Under the pieces are notes generated by a model. It was not told the origin of the DNA. It saw nothing but the letters and a program-made list of their open reading frames with translations, and did no database searches. DNA of 64,000 nucleotides from Nitrospira sp. (GTDB lineage: Bacteria; Nitrospirota; Nitrospiria; Nitrospirales; Nitrospiraceae), in contig SWDR01000002.1 in assembly GCA_005116815.1 (NCBI GenBank), forward strand, positions 10,239 to 74,238, given 5' to 3'. Shown one piece after another: positions 41,124 through 59,864 of this stretch (its first letter is position 1; every line of letters starts with the position of its first letter). Position numbers and translations under genes: made by a program.

Positions 41124-42242
41124 ATGTTGAGTTCATTTACATCATTCAAGGGTCTTGCGGAAACCGATCTGTTCACGATGTTCACCCCCAAGCGGCAGCT
41201 TGTGGGCCTGGATATTGGGTCGAGCGGTATCAAGCTCGTTCAATTGAAGGAAAGCCGAGGACGCTTCATTCTCCAGAAGTTTGGGTTTAAAGCGCTTGAA
41301 CCGGAAGTGATTGTCGATGGTACGGTGATGGACGAGGGGCGGGTGGTATCGGCGATCAAGGAATTGTTCGAGGAAACGAATGTCAAGGTAAAGCAGGTTG
41401 CGGTGTCAATTTCAGGCCATGCCGTCATCATTAAAAAGATCAGTCTTCCTCCAATGCCCGATGAGGAGCTGGAGGGACAGGTGAGACTGGCGGCGGAACA
41501 ATATATTCCGTTCGATATCAATGAGGTGAACATCGATTTCAGTGTGTTGCCTTCTCCTGAGGCTTCTGGCGATGCGCAAGGCGAGATGTCGATCATTCTT
41601 GTTGCAGCCAAGAAGGATAAGATCAATGAATTGACCGAACTTGTCAAAGGGGCCGGGTTGTTTCCTCTGGTCATGGATGTGGATGCTTTTGCGATCGAAA
41701 ACATGCATGGGATCAACTATCCCGTTTCGCAGGAGGATACGACGGCGCTCGTGAATATTGGCGCGAGCGTCATGAATATCAACATTGTTCGAGGCGGTAC
41801 GTCGTTATTTACACGTGATATTCCCATCGGAGGGAATCGTTATACGGAAGCGATTCAACGAGAAATGGGTATGTCCTACGAAGAGGCAGAAGAAACGAAA
41901 AAAGGTGAGCGCTCGGCTGGGAGTAATCAGGCTGCCGTGACCACGGTTATCGATAGTGTGAATGCTGAGGTTGCATCTGAGATCGCCCGAACCATCGACT
42001 ATTTCAAGTCGACCTTGGCAGATGCGGATGTACAGCATGTCCTCTTGTGTGGAGGGGGCGCTCAGGTCAAGGGTTTGGTCGTACAACTGAAAGATCGTAT
42101 GCAGGCCGATGTCGAGGTCGCCAATCCGTTTAGTGAAATCGATACCTCGGGAAGCGATTTTGATCAGGACGCGTTGGCTGCACTGGCACCGTTAGCTGCT
42201 GTGGGGGTTGGCTTGGCCCTTAGATCGGTAGGCGACCGATGA
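41124..42242 (+). CDS. pilM: Type IV pilus assembly protein PilM
   Basis: LVGLDIGSSGIKLVQL (actin-like ATPase fold), ~372 aa. Stop overlaps the pilN start (ATGA). Confidence 0.9.
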   Translation: MLSSFTSFKGLAETDLFTMFTPKRQLVGLDIGSSGIKLVQLKESRGRFILQKFGFKALEPEVIVDGTVMDEGRVVSAIKELFEETNVKVKQVAVSISGHAVIIKKISLPPMPDEELEGQVRLAAEQYIPFDINEVNIDFSVLPSPEASGDAQGEMSIILVAAKKDKINELTELVKGAGLFPLVMDVDAFAIENMHGINYPVSQEDTTALVNIGASVMNINIVRGGTSLFTRDIPIGGNRYTEAIQREMGMSYEEAEETKKGERSAGSNQAAVTTVIDSVNAEVASEIARTIDYFKSTLADADVQHVLLCGGGAQVKGLVVQLKDRMQADVEVANPFSEIDTSGSDFDQDALAALAPLAAVGVGLALRSVGDR

Positions 42243-43753
42243 TTCGTATTAACTTATTGCCAGAGCTGAAGGGGCGCAAGGCCAAGCCTCAGTATGATGT
42301 CAGAGCCCAGGCCCTGTTGGGTGTGGGATTGGTGCTCATCACGTTGGCTGGCTGTTGGTGGTATTCGGCGTCGCTTGATGAAGAAATAAGTGCGCAGCAG
42401 GCCAAAAAGTCAGACTTGGAGAAGCAGGTCGTGCAGTTGAAGGAGCAAGTCAAGCAGGTTTCCGACTTTGAAAGCCGGAAGAAGGTGCTGGAAGACAAAA
42501 ATCATATTATTGACGAGCTGGAGAAGTCACGTGTTGGCCCTGTCAGGGTGCTTGACCATGTCAGTCAGAGCTTGGAGCCGCTCAAGGTCTGGCTGGTACG
42601 AGTCGCAGTCACGGGGAAAGAGATTGACCTTGAGGGCCGTGCAGCGACCAATGATGATGTGGTGGAATTCGTCAACATGTCAGATGGCCAGGATGAGCTC
42701 ATTCTGAGAGCCTCAAAAAACCCTCACCCGAAATTGATTGGCCGGATTACGATCGGGTTGGGAGAGGGGATTACCGGGTGGGTCGCCCAGGAACGAACGC
42801 GCGTCGTGATTCCGAGCAACGCCAGCGACGACTCGCGGTTTAAATTTTTCCACAACCTTCCGGAAGATCGCCATCAAGCCTTCGTCTCCGTGCCGATCAT
42901 GGCGAAGAAGGAAGTGGTCGGTGTGATCAATGTCCAACATAAACGGCCGAAGCGCTATCGGCCTGACGAGATCGCGCTGCTTTCGACCATTGCCAATCAG
43001 GTCGGAGGCGCGATCGAGAACGCGCGGCTCTACGATCAGATGAAACGCAAAGCCCTTCAAGTGGAAACATTGTCGCTGGTTTCAGAAACGGTGGCTTCCA
43101 ATCGATTGATCGAAGACGTGTTGCAGCTCCTGGTGACCATGACCGCCCAAATGATGAGTTCCAAGATCTGCTCGATCATGTTATTGGACGAAACCAGCGG
43201 AGAGCTGCGGATCGAGGCGACACAAAGCCTCAGCGAGCAATATCGCCGTAAGCCAAATCTCAAGGTCGGTCAGAGCATCAGCGGTCGTGCGGTGAAAGAC
43301 CGTCGGCCGATTATCGTGGCTGATGTCACCAAAGAGCAGGACTATATGTATCCGGACATGGCCAAGAAAGAAGGGTTATGCTCCATGGTGTCGGTGCCCA
43401 TGATGGTGAGGGAGAAGGCGGTGGGTGTGATTAATAGCTATACGTCTGTCCCGCACGTGTTTACCAGTGAAGAGGTGAAGCTGCTTCAGGCTATCGCTAA
43501 TCAAGCCGCCATCGCCATCGAGCATACGACCCTGATTGAGAAGTCTTTTGAGATGCAGGAAGCGCTGGCGGTTCGAAAGCTGATGGAGCGGGCTAAGGGC
43601 TACCTGATGCGCTCGAAGAAGCTGACAGAAGAAGAGGCCTTCAAGCTCATTCAGCGGCAAAGTATGGATCTGCGGAAGTCGATGCGCGAGATCGCCGAGG
43701 CCGTGTTGCTGGCAGGGGAAATCGACGGACGGGTGGATAGGCAGCGGGGCTAA
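42239..43753 (+). CDS. Composite ORF: PilN N-terminal ~146 aa joined in frame to a 5'-truncated GAF-GAF-ANTAR regulator
   Basis: Residues 1-146: MIRINLLPE, TM helix, coiled coil, VWLVRVAVTGKEIDLEGRAATNDDVVEFVN (PilN). From about nt 42677: two GAF domains (GEGITGWVAQ..., VGVINVQH / GQSISGRAV..., VGVINSY), then ANTAR (AVRKLMERAKGYLM....LTEEEAFKLIQRQSMDLRKSMREIAEAVL). Confidence 0.85.
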   Translation: MIRINLLPELKGRKAKPQYDVRAQALLGVGLVLITLAGCWWYSASLDEEISAQQAKKSDLEKQVVQLKEQVKQVSDFESRKKVLEDKNHIIDELEKSRVGPVRVLDHVSQSLEPLKVWLVRVAVTGKEIDLEGRAATNDDVVEFVNMSDGQDELILRASKNPHPKLIGRITIGLGEGITGWVAQERTRVVIPSNASDDSRFKFFHNLPEDRHQAFVSVPIMAKKEVVGVINVQHKRPKRYRPDEIALLSTIANQVGGAIENARLYDQMKRKALQVETLSLVSETVASNRLIEDVLQLLVTMTAQMMSSKICSIMLLDETSGELRIEATQSLSEQYRRKPNLKVGQSISGRAVKDRRPIIVADVTKEQDYMYPDMAKKEGLCSMVSVPMMVREKAVGVINSYTSVPHVFTSEEVKLLQAIANQAAIAIEHTTLIEKSFEMQEALAVRKLMERAKGYLMRSKKLTEEEAFKLIQRQSMDLRKSMREIAEAVLLAGEIDGRVDRQRG

Positions 43754-46736: not shown

Positions 46737-46766
46737 TTGACAGATTTTCAGAGAGCATGTTACAAG
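46737..46766 (+). promoter_or_regulatory. Candidate promoter of the porin-amtB leader
   Basis: TTGACA (46737-46742), 18-nt spacer ending in TGT (extended -10), TACAAG (46761-46766). Confidence 0.35.
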
Positions 46767-46782
46767 AGTCCCCATCGGATAG

Positions 46783-46873
46783 GGGAACAACGGCGTTTCC
46801 CACCGGCCTCAAGATAGTACGGCATGGACAATGGCGTCCTCCGGCCCCAACGGGCTAGAGGGCGTTTTTTTTT
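46783..46873 (+). promoter_or_regulatory. Dual-hexaloop + terminator leader (ANTAR-target-like attenuator) upstream of porin-amtB-amtB-glnB-glnD-glnA
   Basis: P1 GGGAAC-AACGGC-GTTTCCC (46783-46801, one bulge), 24-nt linker, P2 GGAC-AATGGC-GTCC (46826-46839). The terminator CGTCCTC-CG-GCCC caac GGGC-TA-GAGGGCG (46835-46864) followed by T9 (46865-46873) shares the GTCC arm with P2. Confidence 0.6.
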
Positions 46874-47074
46874 GGCTGCATGCGAACAGGCTGAGTGACA
46901 GAGAAGATGAGAAGCGAGATGCATACATTGGCCGGTGGGAATCGATGTGGAGATGAGAATCGAATGGGCTTGGAGGGTGCGCACAATGGCGTGCGTGGCG
47001 ACGACGTCGTCGAGGTGAGCGAGAGTAGGTCTGTGAATCACAACATCACCAATCGGACGAGGGAGGCCGTCATT

Positions 47075-51310: not shown

Positions 51311-54348
<3,038 letters not shown>

Positions 54349-54394: not shown

Positions 54395-55804
54395 ATGAAC
54401 GTACGTGAAGTGTTGGAGTATGTGAAGAAACATAAAGTCCAGATCGTCGACTTGAAGTTTGTCGATCTCATCGGGACCTGGCAGCATTTCAGTATTCCGA
54501 CGAATGAATTGACGGAAGACCTCTTCAAGGATGGGTCCGGACTGGACGGCTCCTCCATTCGTGGCTGGAAGGCCATCAATAACAGCGACATGTTGGTCGT
54601 GCCGGATCCGTCGACGGCCTGTCTCGATCCGTTTTGTGCGGTCCCGACGCTGAGCCTCATCGGCAACGTGGTCGATCCGATCACGCGCGAGACCTACGAT
54701 CGCGATCCGCGCTATGTCGCCCAGAAGGCGGAGAAATACCTCCAGAGCACGAAGATCGGCGATACCTCCTACTGGGGTCCCGAAGCCGAGTTCTTCATTT
54801 TCGATCAAGCCCGGTACGATCAGAATGGCCATAGCGGCTACTACTTCATCGACTCCGAAGAAGGCGTCTGGAACATGGGGCAGGAAGGCCACAACCTGGG
54901 CGGCAAGATCCGCCAGAAGGAAGGCTATTTCCCTGTCGCCCCGACCGATACGCAACAGGACATCCGCAGCGAGATGATCCTGGAGATGGAGAAAGCCGGT
55001 ATCCAGATCGAGAAGCATCACCACGAAGTCGCCACGGCCGGTCAGGCGGAAATCGATATCCGCTTCGACTCGCTGGTCAGGACGGCAGACAAAATGATGA
55101 TGTACAAGTACATCGTCAAGAACGTGGCTCGCCGGCATGGCAAGACCGCGACCTTCATGCCGAAGCCGATTTTCGGCGATAACGGATCGGGCATGCATAG
55201 TCACCAGAGCATCTGGAAGGACGGCAAGCCCCTGTTCGCCGGGAAGGAATATGCGGGCGTGTCGCAGATGTGCCTGCACTACATCGGCGGGATTCTGAAA
55301 CATGCGCCGGCGCTGGCCGCCTTTACCAATCCGACGACGAACTCCTACAAGCGTTTGACGCCAGGGTTCGAAGCTCCGGTGTTGTTGGCCTATTCCAGCC
55401 GGAATCGGTCGGCCGGCATCCGGATTCCCATGTATTCACCGAGCCCCAAGGCGAAGCGGATCGAGGTGCGGTTCCCGGACCCGGCCGCGAACCCGTATCT
55501 CGCCTTCTCTGCCATGCTCATGGCCGGGTTGGATGGTATCCAGAACAAGATCAACCCGGGTGAACCGGCCGAGCAGGATCTCTACGATCTCGAAGCGAAG
55601 GCAGCGGCGAAGATTCGCACCATGCCGGGCAGCCTCGACGAAGCGTTGAACAACCTTGAGAAGGACCATGAGTTCCTGCTCAAAGGCGGGGTCTTCAGCA
55701 AGGACCTGATCGAAGCCTGGATCGGGTACAAGCGGACCAAGGAAGTCGATACCATGCGGTTGCGCCCGCATCCGTATGAGTTCTACCTCTATTACGACGT
55801 CTAG
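54395..55804 (+). CDS. glnA: Glutamine synthetase type I
   Basis: FDGSSIRGW; [16 protein letters not shown]; NSYKRL; adenylylation-loop-like NLYDL variant; 469 aa. Confidence 0.97.
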
Positions 55805-55877
55805 AGTACAGGACCCATCTTAGGTATGGGTTGACCTGGTCGAAGAGGCATGGTACATATCTCTTTATGAGCGGAGT

Positions 55878-55970
55878 CGAGGCAACGGCGCCTCGGTAAG
55901 GCTTTCGACATACGGCACACGGACAACGGCGTCCGTCATTCTGGAAAGAGTGGCGGACGCCGTGTTGTTT
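55878..55970 (+). promoter_or_regulatory. Dual-hexaloop + terminator-like element (ANTAR-target-like), unit 1 of the glnA-FNT spacer
   Basis: P1 CGAGGC-AACGGC-GCCTCG (55878-55895), 23-nt linker, P2 ACGGAC-AACGGC-GTCCGT (55919-55936). ACAACGGCGTCCG can alternatively pair with CGGACGCCGTGTTGT (55954-55968), followed by TTGCC (weak U tract). Confidence 0.5.
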
Positions 55971-56028
55971 GCCGACAGATTCCTGGACGATGAAGTCTTG
56001 GATCGGGGTGGCAGAGCCACCTCCACGT

Positions 56029-56079
56029 AGGACAATGGCGTCCTCATTCTGGCAGCAGAGTGAGGACGTTTTCGTTTTT
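56029..56079 (+). terminator. Hexaloop hairpin overlapping an intrinsic terminator, unit 2 of the glnA-FNT spacer
   Basis: AGGAC-AATGGC-GTCCT (56029-56044). Terminator CGTCCTC (56039-56045) / GAGGACG (56062-56068) followed by TTTTCGTTTTT. The preceding hairpin GGTGGC-AGA-GCCACC (56007-56021) is not a hexaloop. Confidence 0.55.
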
Positions 56080-56129
56080 AAGGGATGCGGACGAACGGCG
56101 GTCTGGGAGAAGAAGACAACCACCTCCCA

Positions 56130-56252
56130 CAGGATGCTCAAAAAGACCGTCCAGCAAGGCCGCAGCGAGTGAAGGGCCGAGGCGTACCCGGAGGGTACGT
56201 TGAGGGTCTGAACGATGCGAGAACGAAGCTGGCGGGATTTTTCAGCATCCTG
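56130..56252. repeat. Dispersed palindromic intergenic repeat, copy B (MITE/REP-like)
   Basis: CAGGATGCTCAAAAAGACCGTCCAGCAAGGCCGCAG...GAGGCGTACCCGGAGGGTACGTTGAGG...GAACGAAGCTGGCGGGATTTTTCAGCATCCTG. Aligns with 16526-16684. Ends 26 nt before the FNT start codon. Confidence 0.75.
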
Positions 56253-56277
56253 TTGAGGAGCAACGAAGGAGGGCGTC

Positions 56278-57108
56278 ATGCATACAGCAGATCATGAACG
56301 GATTGCAGGCCTCGCGAAAAAGAAGTTTGGATTCATGGATAGCTCGCTCGGCGGGTATCTCTTGTTGTCGGCGATGGCCGGGGTCTACCTCGGCTTTGGC
56401 ATCGCGCTGATATTCAGTCTAGGGGCACCCTTGATGGCAGCCGGATCGCCGGTGGTGAAACTCGTCATGGGGACCTCGTTCGGGATCGCGTTGACGTTGG
56501 TCATCTTCGCCGGATCGGAACTGTTTACGGGCAACAACATGGTGGGGGCGATCGGCGGACTCTCTAAGAGCGTGACCTGGGGGCAAGTCGCGCAATTCAA
56601 TTTCTGGTCATGGGTCGGGAACTTGGTCGGCTCGCTGGCGCTGGCCTGGCTCGTCGTAGAATCAGGCGTCTTTTCGAAGGGGCCTACGGCGGAGTTTCTG
56701 GGGAAGGTGGCGGCGGTAAAAATGTCCCTGCCGGCCTGGGAACTGTTCGTGCGGGGCATTCTCTGTAATTGGCTGATCTGCCTGGCGGTCTGGACCGCGG
56801 GGCGGACCACGAACGATGCGGCAAAAATTCTGCTGATCTTCTGGTGCCTGTTCGCCTTCATCGGCACGGGATTCGAGCATAGCATTGCCAATCAATCGTT
56901 GCTGGGTATGGCGCTCTTCCTCCCGCATGAGGCGGCCGTGAACTGGGCGGGCTTCTGGTACAACCAAATCTTCGTCGTGCTGGGCAATGTCGTGGGGGGC
57001 GGTCTGTTTGTCGGGGGACTCTATTGGATGGTGAGTCCCTATCGGGTGGTGGAAGAGCCGGTCGTGGTAGAGGCAGCGTCCATATCGTCGGTTCCGCTCC
57101 GGTTCTAA
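56278..57108 (+). CDS. Formate/nitrite transporter family (FNT) channel
   Basis: 276 aa with six TM segments. FAGSELFTGN and GFEHSIAN match the two FNT signature regions. Confidence 0.9.
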   Translation: MHTADHERIAGLAKKKFGFMDSSLGGYLLLSAMAGVYLGFGIALIFSLGAPLMAAGSPVVKLVMGTSFGIALTLVIFAGSELFTGNNMVGAIGGLSKSVTWGQVAQFNFWSWVGNLVGSLALAWLVVESGVFSKGPTAEFLGKVAAVKMSLPAWELFVRGILCNWLICLAVWTAGRTTNDAAKILLIFWCLFAFIGTGFEHSIANQSLLGMALFLPHEAAVNWAGFWYNQIFVVLGNVVGGGLFVGGLYWMVSPYRVVEEPVVVEAASISSVPLRF

Positions 57109-57169: not shown

Positions 57170-57610
57170 ATGGAGAAGGATACGGTTCGAAAGGCGATCA
57201 AGGCGAAGCGGTTGGCAAAGAATGTCACGATTGCGGAGGTGGCGAAGACCGTGGGCAAGAATCCCACGTTCGTGGCGGCGGCATTGAACGGGAACCATCG
57301 ATTCTCTCCGGATGAGGCGAAGAAGATCGGGCATCTGCTTGAACTGGATGCGCCATTGACGGCGGCGCTGAGCGCCTTTCCGGTCCGGACGGATTTCCCT
57401 AACGCGACGGACCCGTTCAAATACCGGCTGCTGGAGATCATCGGGGTCTACGGCGATTCGATGCGGGAGCAGGCTAACGAAATGTTTGGCGACGGCATCA
57501 TGAGCGCGATCGATTTTACGCTCGATATGGAAAAGGTAACGGGGAGCCAGGGCGAAGCGCGGTGCAAGATCACGTTGAACGGCAAGTGGCTCGAATACAA
57601 GACGTTCTAA
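57170..57610 (+). CDS. cynS: Cyanase (cyanate hydratase)
   Basis: 146 aa. N-terminal HTH-like part (KAKRLAKNVTIAEVAK.VG.NPTFVAAAL.G) and catalytic C-terminus (FGDGIMSAIDF...). AAAGGAG RBS. Confidence 0.93.
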   Translation: MEKDTVRKAIKAKRLAKNVTIAEVAKTVGKNPTFVAAALNGNHRFSPDEAKKIGHLLELDAPLTAALSAFPVRTDFPNATDPFKYRLLEIIGVYGDSMREQANEMFGDGIMSAIDFTLDMEKVTGSQGEARCKITLNGKWLEYKTF

Positions 57611-57625
57611 GGTAGGGTTGGCGTG

Positions 57626-57723
57626 CCGGCAATGGAGCCGGTGCAACGAATTGTCGGCTGGCAATGGCGCCAGCTTCTGGGGTTCCTTCGCGGAATCATG
57701 CTGGAAGCTGGCGCCATTGTTTT
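57626..57723 (+). promoter_or_regulatory. Dual-hexaloop + terminator leader (ANTAR-target-like attenuator) between cynS and the wHTH-nirA pair
   Basis: P1 CCGGC-AATGGA-GCCGG (57626-57641), 16-nt linker, P2 CTGGC-AATGGC-GCCAG (57658-57673). A perfect 16-bp terminator stem CAATGGCGCCAGCTTC (57662-57677) / GAAGCTGGCGCCATTG (57704-57719) followed by TTTT consumes the loop and 3' arm of P2. Confidence 0.65.

Positions 57724-57750: not shown

Positions 57751-59864
<2,114 letters not shown>

Follow-up and report, generated by a model that had tools for sequence, protein, structure and literature searches.

Members of the genus Nitrospira are the main nitrite oxidisers of soils, waters and wastewater plants, and to our knowledge the regulation of nitrogen assimilation in these bacteria has been little studied. 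In work attributed to Palatinszky et al. in 2015, the cyanase of Nitrospira is said to let the cells feed ammonia oxidisers from cyanate. A locus in a metagenome-assembled genome of Nitrospira (1.97 Mb over 81 contigs, with 57% GC and a completeness of 72%) raises the question of how genes of this kind are controlled. In the window, that is, the whole stretch of 64,000 nucleotides that was analysed, Pfam matches give the plus-strand gene order pilM, GAF-GAF-ANTAR, nadE, porin, amt, amt, glnB, glnD, glnA, formate/nitrite transporter (FNT), cynS, a 78-codon open reading frame and the start of nirA. A spacer of 473 nt separates glnA from FNT and houses two units, each composed of small hairpins and a terminator-like stem. 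Are these units merely the ends of the glnA transcript, sites for a DNA-binding protein, or switches that decide whether the genes behind them are transcribed? The analysis described below leads, with high confidence, to the reading that they are two ANTAR-type antitermination switches arranged in series in one leader RNA.

The RNA targets of ANTAR proteins consist of two hexaloop hairpins, P1 and P2, whose loops begin with A and have G as the fourth nucleotide (A1 and G4), and P2 overlaps an intrinsic terminator (PMC3369931; PMC8934654). Two adjacent small stem-loops are found in both units of the spacer (Table 1). Both A1 and G4 are present in the two loops of unit 1 (AACGGC in each) and in the P2 loop of unit 2 (AAUGGC), whereas the upstream loop of unit 2, here called P1* (GAUGAA), retains G4 but has G at position 1. 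In both units some bases of P2 also belong to the 5' arm of the terminator, making the two folds mutually exclusive: the loop and 3' arm of the unit 1 P2 constitute the 5' arm of its 17-bp terminator stem, and the unit 2 P2 overlaps its own terminator stem. Both units are more stable than shuffled sequences, with a folding z-score of -5.9 in each case. Sequence reading and a hairpin scan thereby bore out the initial annotation as to the positions of the hairpins, loops and terminators of both units, the competition between the unit 1 P2 and a longer stem with a weak U tract, and the inclusion of the unit 2 P2 arm in a terminator.

Table 1. Features of the locus, in window coordinates; RNA elements of the glnA-FNT leader are listed with their predicted structures and folding energies
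Feature	Position	Strand	Sequence or structure	Basis, energy or setting
GAF-GAF-ANTAR, candidate cognate regulator	42677-43753 (fused ORF 42239-43753)	+		Pfam GAF x2 + ANTAR
Unit of like design	46782-46875	+		before porin-amt-amt-glnB-glnD-glnA
porin	probable start 47075	+
glnB	51323-51661	+
glnA	54395-55804	+
Putative promoter-like boxes	55831-55836; 55851-52; 55854-59	+	TTGACC, 17-nt spacer, TG, n, TACATA	conservation
Unit 1 P1, core	55878-55895	+	CGAGGC-AACGGC-GCCTCG	sequence reading and hairpin scan
Unit 1 P1, extended with G-U pairs	55876-55897 (hexaloop 55884-55889)	+	GUCGAGGC-AACGGC-GCCUCGGU	-11.3 kcal/mol
Unit 1 P2 (antiterminator)	55919-55936 (hexaloop 55925-55930)	+	ACGGAC-AACGGC-GUCCGU	-8.1 kcal/mol
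Unit 1 terminator	stem 55926-55963; to 55972	+	17-bp stem, loop GGAA, tail GUGUUGUUUG	-32 kcal/mol
Unit 2 P1*	55982-56001	+	CCUGGAC-GAUGAA-GUCUUGG, loop G at positions 1 and 4	covariance model search
Unit 2 spacer hairpin	56005-56023	+	GGGGUGGC-AGA-GCCACCUC	in linker; -12.8 kcal/mol
Unit 2 P2 (antiterminator)	56029-56044	+	AGGAC-AAUGGC-GUCCU	hairpin scan; -5.6 kcal/mol
Unit 2 intrinsic terminator	stem 56037-56070; to 56079	+	14-15-bp stem, then UUUUCGUUUUU	-24.8 kcal/mol
Formate/nitrite transporter (FNT)	56278-57108	+		Pfam; candidate controlled gene
Cyanase cynS	57170-57610	+		Pfam; candidate controlled gene
Unit of like design	57625-57718	+		between cynS and nirA

The association of this hairpin type with the locus is far from random. 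Hairpins with an AAYGGC loop and a stem of at least 4 bp occur 66 times in the genome (both strands, 1.97 Mb), and seven of the 66 lie on the plus strand of a single 10.9-kb stretch, where 0.18 would be expected (Poisson P = 1.1e-9); the loop is closed by a C-G pair in all seven. A covariance model, R1, was built from three units, unit 1 among them. The short-linker unit between cynS and nirA, which MAFFT had misaligned, was left out of the seed alignment and was nevertheless recovered by the model search at 17.1 bits; for the two units of the spacer, R1 gives 68.7 bits (unit 1) and 16.6 bits with E 0.035 (unit 2). When applied to 80 Nitrospira loci fetched through their ANTAR gene, R1 yielded 68 matches, all on the strand of the regulator, with the motif present in 64 of the 80 loci. 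In the alignment of these matches 95% of cells are paired, and 90 cells are changed on both sides of a pair, compared to 26 in shuffles. At the outer positions of the P1 stem GC, AU, UA, CG and GU pairs all occur, the pairs that close the two hexaloops are fixed, as are the loops themselves (A-A-N-G-R-N), and the P2 sequence GGACAAYGGCGUCC is nearly invariant across 66 distinct Nitrospira leaders. A second model, R2, trained only on R1 matches from other Nitrospira loci, still assigns unit 1 a score of 42 bits (E ~1e-10).

Comparison of the glnA-FNT spacer among relatives, one of the checks suggested at the outset, was feasible for six alignable congeners and revealed that the hairpins are conserved, with different kinds of evidence from the two units. 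Unit 1 hardly varies: P1 is unchanged across the six genomes save for loop position 3 (C or U), and the terminator stem is 100% paired in all of them, so that this invariance provides no covariation evidence of its own. P1 and P2 are separated by a linker of 21-23 nt. The terminator stem can be extended to 55913-55974, with an energy of -43.4 kcal/mol when extended, and the extended stem swallows the tail. In the source genome the U tract GUGUUGUUUG is weak and can be drawn into the extended stem, so that termination at unit 1 may be inefficient there; stronger U tracts are found in relatives, for example GUUUUGUUUU in G017 and G005.

Unit 2 varies more, and its terminator, P1* and spacer hairpin have undergone compensatory changes. 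P2 is 100% paired in the six genomes, with the loop changed to AACGAC in G008 while A1 and G4 are retained, and the terminator, whose tail in the source genome is TTTTCGTTTTT at 56069-56079, is likewise 100% paired, with both sides changed in 5 of its 14 pairs. The upstream hairpin P1* has 88% of cells paired in relatives and both sides changed in four of seven pairs: stems read CCGAGAC/GUCUCGG or CCGAGAC/GUCUUGG, around the loops GAGGGA, GACGGA or GAGGAA. G-first loops also prevail in leaders adjoining the orthologous regulator in other families, namely GAGGAA in sister family f2 and GACGGC and GAUGAC in f3. An 8-bp spacer hairpin occupies the linker between P1* and P2; three of its eight pairs are changed on both sides, and since the stem is kept while the loop varies (AGA, or CUCUU/CUCUG), it probably shortens the effective linker. 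A unit 2, in either of two sequence versions, stands ~100 nt downstream of unit 1 in all seven congeners that possess unit 1. The compensatory changes in P1* and the G-first loops in sister families make it most likely that unit 2 is a full switch whose P1 is of a variant type. The earlier suggestion that unit 2 is a plain terminator did not hold up against this G-first upstream hexaloop, which the initial annotation had missed, and the joint occurrence of the two units. Whether P1* works in the source genome itself is an even question: its stem there carries a U-U mismatch, which weakens it, and mutation of loop position 1 (A1) in eutP, the position at which P1* has G, lowered induction (PMC3369931). 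An octaloop hairpin past the second terminator (56086-56105, CGGAC-GAACGGCG-GUCUG) was also considered as part of the leader and was dropped, being unconserved in relatives.

A leader of this type would be expected to have a protein partner, and a candidate is encoded in the same cluster, 12 kb upstream of the units. The genome contains a single match to the ANTAR domain (PF03861; 70.6 bits, window 43553-43708), located in a gene that also encodes two GAF domains and that is 5'-truncated and fused to pilN in the source assembly. There, 146 codons from the start of pilN (42239-42676) continue in frame into the regulator sequence, which is without ~62 N-terminal residues; at the junction, 42676/42677, the sequence ...VEFVN is followed by MSDGQDELILRAS, and the regulator resumes from about residue 64. 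Intact orthologues are 421 aa long and share 87-99% identity within the genus and ~70% in two sister families. In relatives aroB lies upstream of the regulator, and pilO/P/Q, aroK and aroB are missing in the source assembly; the junction is probably an assembly mosaic or chimera, or a deletion.

The distribution of the motif is in line with such a partnership. R2 finds between one and seven matches per genome in 17 of the 19 genomes of the genus, and no match in the four genomes of family f4, a family without the ANTAR gene. Sister family f3 is an exception to this co-occurrence: it has the regulator, yet the genus-trained model gives no match there at E <= 0.01, and only weak G-first hairpins are seen near the gene. 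Metagenome-assembled genomes labelled N. lenta possess both the regulator and the motif of leader A, the leader before porin and amt. As for the signal, the GAF domain of EI-Ntr responds to glutamine and 2-oxoglutarate. The structures most similar to the first GAF domain of the regulator (GAF1) are 3e0y, a GAF from Geobacter, and 3ci6 (E 9e-24), the GAF domain of PtsP/EI-Ntr, and because of the latter similarity the protein may respond to nitrogen status, in the form of glutamine or 2-oxoglutarate. Its ANTAR domain resembles those of Rv1626, EutV and NasR (NasR structure 4akk, E 1.4e-4).

How transcripts enter the leader is a separate matter. Just past the glnA stop codon, the sequences ATGGGTTGAC and GAGGCATGGTACAT are invariant in six genomes, and the spacer between them is fixed in length and variable in sequence. 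Read as -35 and -10 boxes, they would place a transcript start near 55866, ~10 nt upstream of P1. A similar TTGAC...GCATGnTACA layout lies at 46738-46767, at the same distance from P1, in the leader before porin and amt (leader A), where the arrangement reads TTGACA...GCATGnTACAAG; the gene upstream of leader A is on the other strand, so that this leader needs a promoter of its own. Clean TTGACA-17-TATAAG promoters are present in other Nitrospira leaders. The candidate -10 box of the glnA-FNT leader is poor and lacks the final T. A scan of 46.5-58.2 kb with the sigma-70 consensus found no promoter, so the proposal rests on conservation, and no sigma-54 -24/-12 pattern (GG-N10-GC) was found by eye in either leader. 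On balance, these patterns favour a promoter belonging to the glnA-FNT leader itself.

Readthrough from glnA into the switches is likely as well, because glnA has no convincing terminator of its own. A CCCAU...AUGGG hairpin right after the glnA stop codon was considered for this role and rejected, as it lacks a U tract and shares sequence with the -35 box. The initial proposal of conditional readthrough from glnA thus stands in so far as nothing evident stops glnA transcripts, and needs amending in that the invariant boxes suggest an additional, local start. It was also observed that the putative -10 region (55840-55863) can itself fold as a hairpin, AAGAG...CUCUU in the source genome and GGGAG...CUCCC in G017, which amounts to an A-U to G-C change; if glnA transcripts cross this region, the hairpin would be an RNA element instead of, or besides, a promoter.

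The genes downstream of the leader differ among genomes. In the source genome and in G016 the leader is followed by FNT-cynS, another switch and nirA, and in G001 by a cynABD-like ABC transporter, cynS, a switch, FNT and nirA. Since all of these variants serve cyanate or nitrite assimilation, the leader appears tied to that pathway rather than to any single gene. In G016 the FNT start lies 45 nt past the unit 2 terminator, a gap with no room for a promoter, so that FNT expression there must cross both terminators.

Several other features of the region were noted along the way. A palindromic element of ~125 bp (window 56124-56252) occupies the space between the second terminator and the FNT start codon. 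It is multi-copy genus-wide: 19 genomes each contain at least 21 copies (87-96% identity), and some copies are present in a few sister-family genomes too; its presence in G000 and G008 and absence from G016 indicate a recent insertion into the FNT 5' untranslated region (UTR). The open reading frames that cross the spacer, one on the minus strand (55695-56279) and two on the plus strand (55969-56172 and 56085-56297), were rejected as coding because the spacer indels are not multiples of three and the frames are crossed by the mobile repeat. The 78-codon open reading frame (window 57751-57987), located after the cynS-nirA switch and before nirA, is one which has no Pfam match and whose stop overlaps the nirA start (ATGA), so that translational coupling is apparent.

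Taken together, these features suggest the following course of events. By default, each switch would fold its long terminator hairpin, and RNA polymerase would halt before FNT and cynS; in the source genome the first terminator is predicted to be leaky and the second strong. Transcripts would enter probably from the promoter just past the glnA stop, and maybe also from glnA. The active GAF-GAF-ANTAR protein, presumably as a dimer, would bind both hexaloops of a unit, recognising loops of the form A/G-A-N-G-R-N closed by a C-G pair. By holding P2, whose loop and 3' arm double as the 5' arm of the terminator, it would block the terminator and let transcription proceed. P2 is far weaker than the terminator in both units (-8.1 vs -32 and -5.6 vs -24.8 kcal/mol) and would therefore need the protein in order to win. 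The layout of the units, their competing folds, their conservation with covariation, their shared occurrence with the ANTAR gene and their agreement with ANTAR sites defined by experiment are shown directly; from sequence we infer the binding of the leader RNA by the GAF-GAF-ANTAR protein, as well as the promoter, the use of P1* and the signal. A more far-reaching proposal, to which a low probability is given, is that the two switches are non-redundant, unit 1 combining A-first loops of canonical type with a leaky terminator and unit 2 joining a G-first recruitment loop and a spacer hairpin to a tight terminator, and constitute a two-threshold gate, the protein sensing glutamine/2-oxoglutarate directly via its PtsP-like GAF domain. 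If this were true, cyanate and nitrite assimilation would be turned on only under sustained nitrogen limitation, and the system would be the first instance of a characterised GAF-ANTAR regulator and also of a described nitrogen-assimilation regulator in nitrite oxidisers.

Other explanations account for part of these observations. That the units are plain tandem Rho-independent terminators of the amt-glnB-glnD-glnA operon, with hexaloops that are incidental or relics, would agree with the terminator-like nature of both long stems and with their position just past glnA, which has no other terminator. However, mere terminators would not call for small hairpins, loops and closing pairs that are invariant in congeners and are shared with the leaders ahead of the operon and behind cynS, nor for co-occurrence of the motif with an ANTAR gene, and in G016 FNT can be expressed only by readthrough; this explanation is considered very unlikely. 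Even less credible is the idea that a dimeric transcription factor uses the GGAC-N6-GTCC repeats as DNA operators. The stems are indeed inverted repeats in DNA, and several copies lie near promoter-like boxes, but the asymmetric AAYGGC loop is on the coding strand in 68 of 68 matches and in 7 of 7 cases in the window, every unit is interlocked with a terminator stem, and the outer P1 pairs covary via G-U intermediates, which are meaningful in RNA only. With loops and closing pairs fixed as these outer pairs change, the initial view that the element is a structured RNA recognised by its loops, rather than a DNA operator, is upheld.

The terminated leader (~100-210 nt) might instead act mainly as a stable small RNA, either as a decoy that draws the ANTAR protein away from other leaders or in trans. 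In favour of such a role, P11/NalA, the closest Rfam family, accumulates as a small RNA, unit 1 combines a perfect ANTAR site with a weak terminator in the source genome, and two units per leader offer four potential binding hairpins. The position directly before assimilation genes is nevertheless more simply explained by control in cis, and a small-RNA role, improbable as the main function, would be compatible with antitermination in cis. The preferred reading remains that of two cis-acting antitermination switches in series.

The two sibling units of the window, one before the porin-amt-amt-glnB-glnD-glnA genes and one between cynS and nirA, are of like design. In addition, a lone hexaloop hairpin, UGCGCAC-AAUGGC-GUGCGUG, is found in the porin 5' UTR (window 46978-46997). 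This hairpin lies ~100 nt beyond the terminator of leader A, precedes the palindrome CGACGACGUCGUCG, has neither a partner hairpin nor a terminator, and is kept in G001 with the loop AAGGGC (L134 15182-15214). Elsewhere in the genus, a leader in another Nitrospira metagenome-assembled genome (L092 9159-9270) comprises three 40-nt repeats, each with a GGAC-AAGGGC/AACGGC-GUCC hexaloop, the last hairpin of which is immediately followed by a U tract (GUCUUUUUC) and lacks a terminator stem of its own. A similar tandem of two matches (L067 14922-15066) also has its second match end in GUCUUUUUC. These two leaders represent a different wiring of the same hexaloop motif.

The two units of the glnA-FNT leader and their two siblings point to a compact regulon acting after transcription initiation, which would include porin-amt-glnB-glnD-glnA, FNT/cynABD-cynS and nirA under one uncharacterised GAF-GAF-ANTAR protein. 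No pertinent paper came from a full-text literature search that combined Nitrospira and ANTAR. GAF-coupled ANTAR proteins had not been characterised as of Ramesh 2012 (PMC3369931), and the locus offers a natural case for their study. Because the mechanism itself is textbook, the gain lies in physiology and in extension of the family, not in a new principle: the locus is a new example of the known ANTAR mechanism in nitrifiers, and the tandem layout and the GAF-coupled regulator are the points that deserve experiment.

Among known RNA families, P11/NalA is the nearest. At gathering thresholds, a search of the window against Rfam yields tRNAs only, and at E <= 10 the only meaningful match is P11/NalA (RF00625), with 25.3 bits (E 0.0019) and confined to the hairpin/terminator part. 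This score against a family threshold of 70 indicates that the leader is not a member of P11/NalA, though it would work in a P11-like way. The P11/NalA leader of Pseudomonas nirBD, bound by NasT (PMC11387622, PMC10783516), likewise stands before nitrite-assimilation genes and has a GGACAAAGGCGUCC-type hexaloop hairpin interlocked with a terminator, but NasT is controlled by the nitrate sensor NasS via partner switching.

Among the closest counterparts in architecture is the eut system of Enterococcus faecalis with EutV (PMC3369931; PMC8934654), which shares the dual hexaloops with A1 and G4, the overlap of P2 with the terminator and the presence of several switches per cluster. It differs in its REC sensor, as opposed to GAF-GAF, and in its pathway and loop sequences. 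The linkers of Nitrospira, at 23-28 nt, are longer than those of EutV targets, in which a 20-nt linker extension abolished antitermination (PMC8934654), and unit 2 adds a G-first loop and a spacer hairpin in the linker. NasR of Klebsiella, acting at nasF, is alike in the kind of regulator: it is a one-component ANTAR protein with a fused sensor that acts on a nitrogen-assimilation operon through an A1/G4 hexaloop (PMC3369931), although its sensor is a NIT domain instead of GAF-GAF and the ANTAR domains are only distantly alike.

The closest resemblance in the sites themselves is to GnfK/GnfR of Geobacter sulfurreducens, which controls antitermination at the nifH, glnK and amtB leaders (Ueki & Lovley 2010, PMC2995071). 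The GnfR site CAGGCAANGGCGCC and unit 1 P1 (GAGGCAACGGCGCC) agree in 13 of 14 positions, and one loop and closing pair are common to the GnfR site, to P1 and to the P2 hairpins (GGACAAYGGCGUCC). As in Nitrospira, the GnfR site lies in leaders of nitrogen genes, operons of the amtB/glnK type among them, and overlaps a terminator hairpin there. GnfR, however, is a response regulator of the receiver-ANTAR type activated by a kinase, whereas in Nitrospira the putative partner is a GAF-GAF-ANTAR protein of the one-component type, for which no kinase is evident, so that the resemblance is one of sites and not of orthology. The targets differ too: those of Geobacter include nif, and those proposed for Nitrospira include, instead, the cyanase and nitrite-assimilation genes, with two switches per leader.
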